Assembly: GCA_000004985.1 (NCBI GenBank)
Contig: GG738859.1
Length of the DNA: 64,000 nt
Source of the DNA: Naegleria gruberi
Taxonomy: Eukaryota
Strand: one strand, 5' to 3'
Of this stretch, positions 23,958 through 31,596 are shown one piece after another (the stretch's first letter is position 1; the number at the start of each line of letters is the position of its first letter). The position numbers and the translations under genes are program-made. Under the pieces are notes generated by a model, which was not told where the DNA came from, did no database searches, and saw only the letters and a list, made by a program, of their open reading frames with translations.

Positions 23958-26149
23958 TTATTGAAGAACATCCAACGTTACCTCCAAATCCTGTTCATGA
24001 GAGAAGAGCATTTGTTTTTGAGCAAGATTCATGTAAATTCCATTTGGAATTTTCATCAACTCTTCGTGTGTTCCCGTCTCTTTCAAAACTCCCTTTGCCA
24101 ACACACAAATCTTATCAGAATTTCTAACAGTGGATAATCTGTGAGCAATGCAAATGGTTGTTCTTCCCTTCATTAACAAATCCAAAGCAGCTTGAACGAG
24201 AGCTTCAGATTCAGTATCCAATGCAGAGGTAGCTTCATCCAATAAAAGAATCTTTGGATTTTGTAATAAGGCACGAGCAATACAGACACGTTGCTTTTGA
24301 CCACCTGAGAGTGAAACACCACGTTCACCCAATAATGTATTGTACCCTTCTGGAAGATCCATGATGAAACTGTGACAGTTGGCTGATTTGGCAGCTTCAA
24401 TAACTTGTTCCATTGATGTGTTTTCTTCACCAATTGCATATGCAATATTCTTGTAAATAGTAGTTGCAAACACTGTAAAATGTTAATTTCCTTAAATTCC
24501 AATATTATGAAACAACTTACAAATAGGTTCTATATGAAAATATTAGAAACAATTCGAAACAAAATTAGCAACACTTACCTTGTGTAACAATTCCAAGATT
24601 TCTATGTAACCACATTGGATCCAATTCAGCCAAATCAACTCCATCCAAGTAGACTTTACCACTTGCTGGTTCATAAAATCTTTCCAACAAACCTACAATG
24701 GTTGATTTACCAGAACCTGATGGACCAACCAAAGCAGCAGCTTCACCTGCCTTAATATCCAAACTGAAATTCTTCAATACAGTCACATTTGGACGTGATG
24801 GATAAATAAAATCAACATTTGCAAAGGTTACGTTTCCAATAATTTTTTCAAGTGTTTTACCTCCTTGGAATGGAATGGCTGCCTTTCTCTTTAAGATTTT
24901 CAAAACTGTCTTTTGAGAAACCATAGCTTTAGTATAATCTGGGAAGAAACCACCAGTTCCTGAAATACCCATAATGGCAAAGAGTGAGAGACCAAAGATT
25001 TTCATCATACTTCCAATATTCATCTTTGATTCAACAACTAAACCTCCACCAAACTATGTTACATTATTAGAAACTCAATAAGAAATTACTAATAACTACT
25101 TACCCAGAAAGCTAAAGCAGCAGTTCCCCACAAAATAGCTGTCAATAATCCAAACGTAGCTCCCAAAGAAAATGACTTTCCAATACCAGCCAAATACATC
25201 TTTCTAACATCTCTCTTATATCTTGATCTTTCCTTTTCTTCACCAGCCATTGATCTAACTGTTCTCATACATGATGTTACCTCAGTAGCAATTGCAGCAC
25301 TGTGATCATTGGCTTTGTTAATCTTCAAAGTGAGCTTTCTAATAATTCCTCCAAGAACAACAACACCCAATACCATGAGAGGAGTGGTAGAAATCATAAC
25401 AAGAGCCATTTCCCATCCAGTTGTCAAAGCCAAAACAACACCAACAATGAATTGTGTCATGTTTTGGAAGAGAGTTGCCAATTTGACTGTGTAAATTTCC
25501 TGAATTCTACTAATATCCTCAGATAGAGTAATGGTAAGACTTCCAACCTTCTTAATATCAAAGAAACCCATTTCTTGAGTGGTGAGTGAATCAAAATAGG
25601 CACCTCTCAAAGCTACACCAATTCTTTCACTTGCCCAATTCAAGAAGAATTGAGACATGAAATTGGCAATGGCAGAACCTGCAGCAATAATGGCAAATTG
25701 ACCTGCATAGGTTGAAATGAGAGATTTTTGCTCAGCGACAGTAATTGCAGTACCATCAGCTTTTGTTGGTGAAAAGACATTAACTAAATCACCCATAACA
25801 AATTGGAAACTGAATTAACATGAGTATAATAATAATGGACATTTTGAACAGTAAATTAACACATGCGTTCTGAATAAACTTACCTGATTGGAATAACACC
25901 ACTTCCCATAGCTCCAATTGTTCCCAATAGAATAATAATCCAATTAATACCAATAATCTTATAAATTGTGAATGCATCATGGAATTTCAAATCTGGTTCT
26001 CTAACATCATGAATTTGCTCATCTCCACCACTTTGAGCTTGTTGTTTCTGTTGGTCAGCATCCTTCTTCTTGAATGGATTTCTTGATTTTCTTTGAGTTT
26101 GATCAGCTTGATTAGATGAAATCTCAACCTCAATTTTATCTTGGGTCAT
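23958..26149 (-). CDS. ABCB: ABC transporter, ABCB-type half transporter (TMD-NBD), about 653 aa
   Basis: There are four exons: 26149..25884, 25809..25104, 25053..24579 and 24472..23958. The introns are 25810..25883 (74 nt), 25054..25103 (50 nt) and 24473..24578 (106 nt), all GTAAGT…YAG with consistent phases. The NBD has Walker [10 protein letters not shown], the Q-loop IVTQ|VFATT, the signature [15 protein letters not shown], Walker [13 protein letters not shown] and the H-loop CIAHRLST. A six-helix TMD lies upstream. Confidence 0.85.
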
Positions 26150-29200: not shown

Positions 29201-29287
29201 GGTGTGACTTCACAGTTGTTGTGTGCTTGTTTTTCCTTATGCTATTATGGTGTGACTTCACGGTCGTATTGTATGGTTGTTTTTTTG
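29201..29287. repeat. Imperfect tandem duplication of about 43 bp in the LETM1/PAK bidirectional promoter
   Basis: Copy 1 is GGTGTGACTTCACAGTTGTTGTGTGCTTGTTTTTCC. Copy 2 is GGTGTGACTTCACGGTCGTATTGTATGGTTGTTTTTTTG. Each carries TGACTTCA, which is one mismatch from the CRE motif TGACGTCA. Confidence 0.4.
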
Positions 29288-30101: not shown

Positions 30102-31596
30102 ATGGGCTTTTTCACTAAAAAAAAGGATAAATCACCAGCCTACGATGCTGATGCAATCAAGTGCGAAATTTCTGGGCCAACCGACTTTAAAAGGGGAGTG
30201 CATATTGAAGTTGACCTCAACCAAGGTACTTTGAAAGGTGTACCAACACAATGGAAAGATACATTTGGAGATAGTGCTCAATATGATGAAAATTCTGCTG
30301 TGAATCCAAATCTCTTACCTACAATGAGCTCATCTCAAGATAATGTTCAAGGATTTGTTATTTCAAAACCATTCGAATTCAAACATAATATTCACGTTGA
30401 CTATAACAGTGAGGTAGGTTTTATTATTATTTTGACAGTTGGTTGACTAATTTCAAATAGACCGGTTTCGTTGGTCTTCCACCAGAATGGGAAACCATGC
30501 TTAAAACATCTGGTATCACAAAAGATGAAGCTGTTCAAAATCAAGATGCTGTTTTGGGTATTTTGGACTTGGCAACTAATAATATGCAAAGACCAGATGA
30601 AGCAGCTGCTAAACAAAAACCAATTGGCGGTAAGAAACAACGTCTTGTTGAATATCTCCAAAATGAAGACCCAACTAAAGTATTTGGTAAACTCCAAAGA
30701 CTTGATGAAGGTTCTTCTGCCGTTGTTTACAAGGGTATTCACAACAAGACTGGTATGAAAGTTGCCATCAAGATTATACAGATTAAAGCTGACACCAAGT
30801 TAGAAACATTAGAAAACGAAATTGCAATGATGCACTCTTGTCAACATGAAAATATTGTAAAATACGTAGGAGCATACTCACACAATCAAGATTTGTGGAT
30901 TGTCATGGAAATGATGAGTGGTGGTAAACTCACAGATTTGTTATTGAGCACTCAATTCTCTGAACCAGAAATTGCTGCTGTTTGTAAGGAAATTTTGAAA
31001 TCACTCAAGTACCTCCACGATAATCAAAGAATTCACCGTGATATCAAATCAGATAACGTACTTCTTGGAGAAAATGGTGATGTCAAATTGGCTGACTTTG
31101 GTTTCTGTGCTGAATTATCCCAAACTGCTGATAAGAGACGATCAGTCGTTGGTACTCCATACTGGATGGTAAGTTTTCTTGTTTTAATTCAATTTTAAAT
31201 TTACAATTTTATTATAGGCACCTGTAAGTTTAGTTTTTCAATTTTATTTATTTAAATATTATTATTTAGGAAGTTATTCGTGGAGTTGATTATGACACCA
31301 AGGTTGACATTTGGTCTTTGGGTATTATGGCTTTGGAAATGGCTGATGGTGAACCACCATTGCTTGACTTGCCACCATTGAGAGCTTTGTTCATTATTGC
31401 CACTCAACCACCTCCAACTTTGAGAGAACCAGAGAAGTGGTCAAATGTCTTTAAGGACTTTTTGGCTTGTGCTCTTGCTAAGAATCCTCAAAAGAGAGCC
31501 TCAGCTGATGATCTTTTGAACCATCCATTCATTCAAAAGGCTACTGATACTAAGTTCCTTGTTGAACTCATTAAGAAGTATAAGTTGAAGAAATAA
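30102..31596 (+). CDS. PAK: p21-activated kinase (PAK/STE20 family) with an N-terminal CRIB motif
   Basis: There are four exons: 30102..30413, 30461..31168, a 6-nt micro-exon at 31218..31223, and 31270..31596. The introns are 30414..30460 (GTAGGT…AATAG), 31169..31217 (GTAAGT…TTATAG) and 31224..31269 (GTAAGT…ATTTAG). The CRIB motif is ISGPTDFKRGVHIEVD. The kinase motifs are GSSAVVYKG, VAIK, HRDIKSDN, DFGF and GTPYWM-AP-EVIRG. The full length aligns with human PAK1. Confidence 0.85.
31218..31223 (+). other. PAK: 6-nt micro-exon (GCACCT, encoding Ala-Pro) of the PAK gene
   Basis: The hexamer is flanked directly by a perfect acceptor (TTATTATAG|) and a perfect donor (|GTAAGTTT). It supplies the invariant AP of the subdomain-VIII APE motif, giving GTPYWM|AP|EVIRG. 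Splicing that skips it would delete AP from an otherwise canonical kinase. Confidence 0.7.

Follow-up and report, generated by a model that had tools for sequence, protein, structure and literature searches.

The hexamer GCACCT at positions 31218-31223 of the 64-kb stretch of Naegleria gruberi NEG-M DNA analyzed here (the window) is very probably a genuine, normally included 6-nt coding exon of NAEGRDRAFT_32381, a plus-strand PAK gene, in which it would supply Ala341-Pro342 of the APE motif. Within the kinase, this motif holds the activation segment in place at its C-terminal end. The micro-exon reading holds because inclusion of the hexamer restores the APE of a true PAK, mRNAs of close relatives contain GCACCT, and a layout with two introns at this site is conserved in the genus. 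The arrangement had been proposed from the sequence alone, as an exon ending at 31168 before GTAAGT, a hexamer 49 nt downstream with perfect splice sites on both flanks, and a further 46-nt intron; every coordinate and letter of that description proved exact.

Joining the four exons of the gene (Table 1) yields an open coding sequence of 450 codons in which every junction is in phase 0 and which spells GTPYWMAPEVIRG across the APE site. Exon 2 finishes with ...GGTACTCCATACTGGATG (GGT ACT CCA TAC TGG ATG) immediately before the GTAAGT donor of intron A at 31169-31174. The donor of intron B, also GTAAGT, occupies 31224-31229, and its acceptor (TTTAG/GAAGTT at 31269/31270) opens onto GAA GTT ATT CGT from 31270. 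The 450-aa product matched Pkinase (PF00069, 1e-69) and, in two stretches, PBD (PF00786, 2.4e-26); this placement of PBD/CRIB segments N-terminal to a STE20-type kinase domain identifies it as a PAK of the STE20 group. Its best matches among solved structures were human PAK2 (1e-91), MST1 (STK4), and PAK1, with alignments that run without gaps across GTPYWMAPEV. Upstream of the PAK start, a spacer of ∼1 kb separates the gene from a minus-strand neighbor with which it presumably shares a divergent promoter region; this spacer contains two copies of a direct repeat 48 nt apart.

Table 1. Coordinates of the features described in the text. Positions refer to the window, except for loci of other genomes, which are numbered on their own contigs.
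Feature	Position	Strand	Description
PAK exon 1	30102..30413	+	ATG at 30102; first PBD/CRIB-like segment and start of the second; ends AGTGAG/GTAGGT
PAK intron 1	30414..30460	+	47 nt, GTAGGT...CTAAT...AATAG; phase 0, between E and T
PAK exon 2	30461..31168	+	Remaining PBD and kinase domain up to the activation loop; end ...GTPYWM
PAK intron A	31169..31217	+	49 nt, GTAAGT...TTATTATAG; phase 0, between Met340 and Ala341; inferred older intron
Predicted micro-exon GCACCT	31218..31223	+	6 nt; codes Ala341-Pro342 of the APE motif
PAK intron B	31224..31269	+	46 nt, GTAAGT...TATTATTTAG (TATTTAG end); phase 0, between Pro342 and Glu343
PAK exon 4	31270..31596	+	EVIRGVDYD... to the TAA stop; opens GAAGTTATTCGT (EVIR)
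Direct repeat, two copies	29201-29215 and 29249-29263		GGTGTGACTTCAC(A/G)G
ABC upstream exon, end	24579	-	...LGIVTQ+G
ABC upstream intron	24578-24530	-	49 nt, GTAAGT..ATATAG
ABC micro-exon	24529-24521	-	9 nt, AACCTATTT
ABC downstream intron	24520-24473	-	48 nt, GTAAGT..TTACAG; then TGTTTGCAACT
3-nt exon locus, N. fowleri (L006)	3121-3260		CCT (Pro of APE)
3-nt exon locus, N. lovaniensis (L003)	4144-4290		CCT (Pro of APE)
3-nt exon locus, N. lovaniensis paralogue (L004)	3303-3480		CCT (Pro of APE)
3-nt exon locus, N. lovaniensis paralogue (L091)	1807-1980		CCT (Pro of APE)
Environmental Naegleria-like genomic locus (L007)	2937-3700		ENA ERZ27315067, contig k141_600372; 93% aa identity

A canonical acceptor and a canonical donor directly abut the hexamer (TTATTATAG/GCACCT/GTAAGT), the length of which lies within the 15-nt upper bound for a micro-exon. 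Its retention in the predicted spliced string, ...CCATACTGGATG/GCACCT/GAAGTTATTCG, gives GTPYWM-AP-EVIRG in frame, with phase 0 on both sides, and restores the conserved protein sequence. The original prediction also had inclusion restoring GTPYWMAPE as a conserved motif; the restored stretch agrees with human PAK1 and PAK2 and with most homologues: the GTPxWM segment was found in 126 of the 128 retrieved, and APE follows it directly in 119 of these 126. Six of the seven exceptions are mis-annotated gene models of Naegleria or its relatives or prokaryote-style ORF calls that read into the intron, and the remaining one, from Chilomastix, has SPE. Skipping of the hexamer leaves, as foreseen, an in-frame protein devoid of AP (448 aa, GTPYWMEVIRG), and reading on from 31169 into the retained intron meets a stop after 10 codons. 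The composite pattern AG-GCN-CCN-GTAAGT occurred once on both strands of the 64 kb, with an expectation of 0.00 in 100 dinucleotide shuffles. The looser pattern YAG-N6-GTAAGT had three occurrences in the window against 0.7 expected, the other two being ordinary sequence.

GTAAGT is the best match to U1, and both donors at the site have it. The candidate branch sites of introns A and B are limited to TTTAC and TTTAT-like motifs that appear weak by eye, with no CTAAY-type sequence seen, unlike intron 1 and the introns of the ABC transporter gene described below, which contain CTAAT or TTAAC candidates. Folding of the RNA from 31155 to 31285 placed AAAUUUACA of intron A in a stem with donor B, but the predicted structure was no better than that of shuffled sequences (z = -1.5). 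We also noted that an 11-mer, ATTTACAATTT (window 31198-31208), is common to N. gruberi intron A and the intron found at the equivalent Met/Ala position in Willaertia (L002, after 4319); this 11-mer includes the likeliest branch-site candidate and can pair with donor B (UGUAAGUUU). The overall similarity of the two introns was not significant (z = 1.1).

Transcript evidence came from two contigs of about 1.5 kb with UTR-like ends, L001 (ERR2815266) and L005 (SRR17423265), which showed nucleotide identities of 84-93% across the CDS. None of the three introns occurs in either contig, and both read TGGATG-GCACCT-GAAGTT. Intron 1 has the same position (between E and T) in Willaertia, N. lovaniensis, N. 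fowleri, and the environmental locus L007; because this intron, present in all five genomic loci examined, is missing from L001 and L005 too, the two contigs are spliced mRNAs, which belong to close relatives and do not show the splicing of the micro-exon itself. The L005 protein is 98% identical in amino acids to that of the window, and nucleotide identity is 93-96% in the aligned exon sequence that flanks the hexamer. Full-length orthologues with WMAPEVIRG came from three Logan assemblies, namely P0123 (98% aa identity) and P0122 and P0001 (94% by BLASTP); the P0122 contig was judged from its protein, whereas the DNA was read for L001 and L005. Neither the exact 450-aa product with AP nor the 448-aa product without it was present in a collection of 15 billion proteins. 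The mRNA strings diagnostic of the possible outcomes are ATGGCACCTGAAG for inclusion of the hexamer, ATGGAAGTT for skipping, and TTTCTTGAAGTT for the reference gene model, which reads VSFL at this site.

These transcripts bear directly on whether the hexamer might be spliced alternatively, with inclusion generating an active PAK and skipping an in-frame protein that lacks AP, keeps the GTPase-binding domains, has a crippled activation segment, and might serve a regulatory or dominant-negative role. Such an isoform is conceivable, since the frame survives skipping, the branch-site candidates of both flanking introns look weak by eye, and exon skipping in general has been detected in N. gruberi transcriptomes (PMC6142364). 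We nevertheless consider it improbable: AP was present in all three assembled transcripts from relatives, the optimal GTAAGT at both donors suggests efficient use, and the database proteins that seem to skip the residues (FDP41_000187 and C9374_013725, both WMA-EVIRG) look like products of gene models. Constitutive inclusion is the reading that we retain, although some skipping may occur alongside it.

The comparison of PAK orthologs in related genomes that had been suggested as a check recovered the two-intron layout in N. fowleri, N. lovaniensis, and two N. lovaniensis paralogues, with a still smaller exon. In these four loci, introns between Ala and Pro (A/P) and between Pro and Glu (P/E) delimit the 3-nt exon CCT, which encodes the Pro of APE (TGG ATG GCN/GTAAGT...YAG/CCT/GTAAGT...YAG/GAA GTT), whereas N. 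gruberi has introns between Met and Ala (M/A) and at P/E with 6 nt in between. Willaertia magna (L002), Acrasis kona (L090), and a metagenomic heterolobosean (L088) have the M/A intron only, followed by GCTCCTGAAGT; the P/E intron was found in Naegleria and not in these three. The environmental Naegleria-like genomic locus L007 has no intron at the APE site while keeping intron 1, and a more distant N. fowleri PAK paralogue is likewise uninterrupted at APE. Primate PAK4, the one metazoan paralogue checked, has no M/A intron, its nearest intron lying 11 codons downstream. A scan of metagenome contigs returned 80 loci, all of them intronless or mRNA-like at the site and thus uninformative on introns; one of the patterns used, YWMAPEVI, matches only uninterrupted sequence. 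No similarity could be detected between the introns of N. gruberi and those of N. fowleri (z = 0.6 and -0.4); what is being retained is therefore just the exon with its splice sites. Introns A and B were also compared with each other for traces of a tandem duplication. The two resemble each other only marginally in N. gruberi (p = 0.034) and N. lovaniensis (p = 0.040), and no similarity was seen in N. fowleri or the paralogue.

All five Naegleria reference models examined are wrong at the APE motif, in agreement with the expectation that exons of this size are hard for gene finders. The N. gruberi entry XP_002678953.1 (NAEGRDRAFT_32381, P0121, 307 aa) is identical to residues 146-450 of the 450-aa model except for VSFL in place of Ala341-Pro342. 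Its exon takes in the first 12 nt of intron A and is spliced from the poor donor GTTTTA (31181), giving WM-VSFL-EVIRG. Since it starts at Met146 (MQRPDE...) and leaves out exon 1, intron 1, and both PBD/CRIB segments (window 30102-30540), the database protein resembles a bare kinase rather than a PAK. The other four models read WMA-EVIRG (N. fowleri FDP41_000187), WMAPVS with 18 residues lost (N. lovaniensis C9374_006146), WMA-EVIRG (N. lovaniensis C9374_013725), and WMAPVIIRG (N. lovaniensis C9374_005015). A kinome survey or drug-target analysis would wrongly score these five proteins as degenerate kinases or pseudokinases because every one of their gene models carries a damaged APE. That the published JGI/NCBI model XP_002678953.1, or else a formally canonical 101-nt GTAAGT...TAG intron (WM-EVIRG), is correct, leaving a degenerate kinase without APE and splice-like flanks of the hexamer by coincidence, is barely credible given the zero chance expectation of the composite pattern, an arrangement conserved across Naegleria although the introns diverge, GCACCT in the mRNAs of close relatives, the poor GTTTTA donor that VSFL requires directly beside a perfect one, and the strong constraint on the rest of the kinase (98% identity to P0123).

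With the hexamer taken as a coding exon, a comparison of six genomes permits an account of how the site may have evolved. We infer that the M/A intron is old within Heterolobosea, because it is found in Willaertia, Acrasis, and the metagenomic heterolobosean too. As these outgroups have the upstream intron alone, the micro-exon most likely arose through a single gain of a second intron 6 nt downstream, at P/E, in the Naegleria lineage, which is the simplest account of its birth. In the lineage of N. fowleri and N. lovaniensis, where the Ala codon belongs to the upstream exon, the upstream intron would then have moved by one codon (ATG GCT/GTAAGT), leaving the 3-nt exon CCT. One environmental Naegleria-like lineage probably lost both introns; the structure of L007, in which intron 1 is present and both APE-site introns are absent, fits a joint loss of two adjacent introns. 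A distance tree put the N. lovaniensis paralogues on a long branch outside the group of Naegleria and Willaertia orthologues. We take their shared A/P and P/E intron structure as pointing to genes that arose recently and then diverged fast; should the long-branch placement be real, the 3-nt arrangement may have an earlier origin.

As for the splicing reaction, each of the two flanking introns is probably recognized across the intron (intron definition), because both are near the minimal length in a genome whose introns measure about 40-60 nt. They are probably removed one after the other, since 6 or 3 nt are too few for U1 to sit on the downstream donor while the upstream 3′ splice site is occupied by its complex. 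The first removal would join the hexamer to a large exon and leave an ordinary intron behind. The site is not a stwintron or a recursive splice site, because the six bases (three in N. fowleri) must stay to encode AP or P and the mRNAs of relatives keep them.

A crude scan of the window for frame-consistent introns returned about 16 donor sites; the candidate introns mostly measured 39-61 nt (mode, about 47-52 nt), and four were longer (74-143 nt). Two of these longer candidates, of ∼101 and ∼106 nt, correspond to the PAK site and to a site in an ABCB-type transporter gene, and each splits into a micro-exon and two flanking introns of 46-49 nt. About half of the candidate donors in the window are GTAAGT, the rest being GTATGT, GTAGGT, or GTACGT. 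Donors flanking micro-exons were GTAAGT in 12 of 12 cases among the loci examined, versus 7 of the 14 remaining donor candidates in the window; this excess is suggestive only, as the sites are interrelated. A loose scan for paired introns across the window gave many false positives, and homology backs the PAK and ABC sites only.

The second of these sites lies on the minus strand, at window positions 24473-24579, and presents a 9-nt micro-exon of the same build as that of the PAK gene. Joining the ABC exons restores the Q-loop motif as it occurs in all close homologues, and the search for an annotated N. gruberi protein 100% identical to this transporter turned up none. This micro-exon may be specific to N. 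gruberi, since an N. fowleri-like ORF (P0147) is contiguous across the Q-loop motif. The presence of a second micro-exon within the same 64 kb suggests that a micro-exon-aware re-annotation of the genus would be worthwhile.

A broader picture, which we advance tentatively as somewhat less likely than not, is that the formation and upkeep of exons of 3-9 nt, each set in a catalytic motif between two near-minimal (∼47-nt) introns, are routine in Naegleria, and that the reference proteomes of all Naegleria, the pathogen N. fowleri among them, systematically get these exons wrong. On that view, the PAK site would document the whole life cycle of a micro-exon in one genus: it is born when an intron is gained 6 nt away from an older one, is cut to 3 nt as the upstream intron slides by one codon, passes to new paralogues, and disappears when both introns are lost together. 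The six-genome comparison would provide a dated example of how a micro-exon forms by intron gain and is reshaped by a one-codon intron shift. An exon of 3 or 6 nt between introns of ∼47 nt also offers a clean natural test of the smallest exon that an intron-definition spliceosome can handle. The value of the PAK micro-exon itself lies in a concrete correction to the annotation and in a neat illustration of intron evolution, and no new principle is involved.

Tiny, mis-annotated exons are already known from other organisms; what the Naegleria site adds is the occurrence of 6-nt and 3-nt versions within one genus, the very short introns, and faulty models in five out of five cases. A literature search on micro-exons in Naegleria or heteroloboseans found no report in the library covered. 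In plants and green algae, constitutive coding micro-exons of 1-15 nt reside in conserved domains, are conserved across species, and are widely mis-annotated (Yu et al. 2022, PMC8831610), and in Chlamydomonas Pkinase ranks near the top of the domains that bear them (PMC8831610); micro-exons have been catalogued in Drosophila too (PMC8042270). With conserved domains, including kinase domains, thus documented to contain exons of 1-15 nt and a second micro-exon in the same window, the original description of an exon inside a catalytic motif as unusual was overstated. The Naegleria exon resembles its plant and algal counterparts in that a tiny exon between canonical introns encodes part of a conserved domain, annotations miss or mangle it, and lineages that lose both flanking introns hold the bases within one large exon. 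A stepwise mechanism, in which the flanking introns are not excised simultaneously, has also been proposed for plant micro-exons (PMC8831610). The Naegleria exon differs in belonging to a heterolobosean amoeba, in having near-minimal (46-49 nt) instead of long flanking introns, in varying in length between congeners (6 versus 3 nt), and in being predicted here from genomic sequence and the mRNAs of relatives.

The displacement of the upstream intron, at M/A in N. gruberi, Willaertia, and Acrasis and at A/P in N. fowleri and N. lovaniensis, is reminiscent of the 1-nt intron shift between fungal orthologues that proceeds via stwintrons (Fekete et al. 2017, PMC5587772), as in both cases nearby but non-identical intron positions fall within a stretch of conserved peptide. 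However, the Naegleria shift spans a whole codon (3 nt) and adjoins a micro-exon, and neither a stwintron nor an intermediate state was found. Finally, the encoded protein shares with the group I PAKs (human PAK1, PAK2, and PAK3) an N-terminal PBD/CRIB, a C-terminal STE20-type kinase domain, and an identical GTPYWMAPEV, whereas it is short (450 aa), has two PBD-like stretches, and, unlike PAK1 and PAK2, aligns a Ser (KRRSVVGTPYW) with their activation-loop phospho-Thr.
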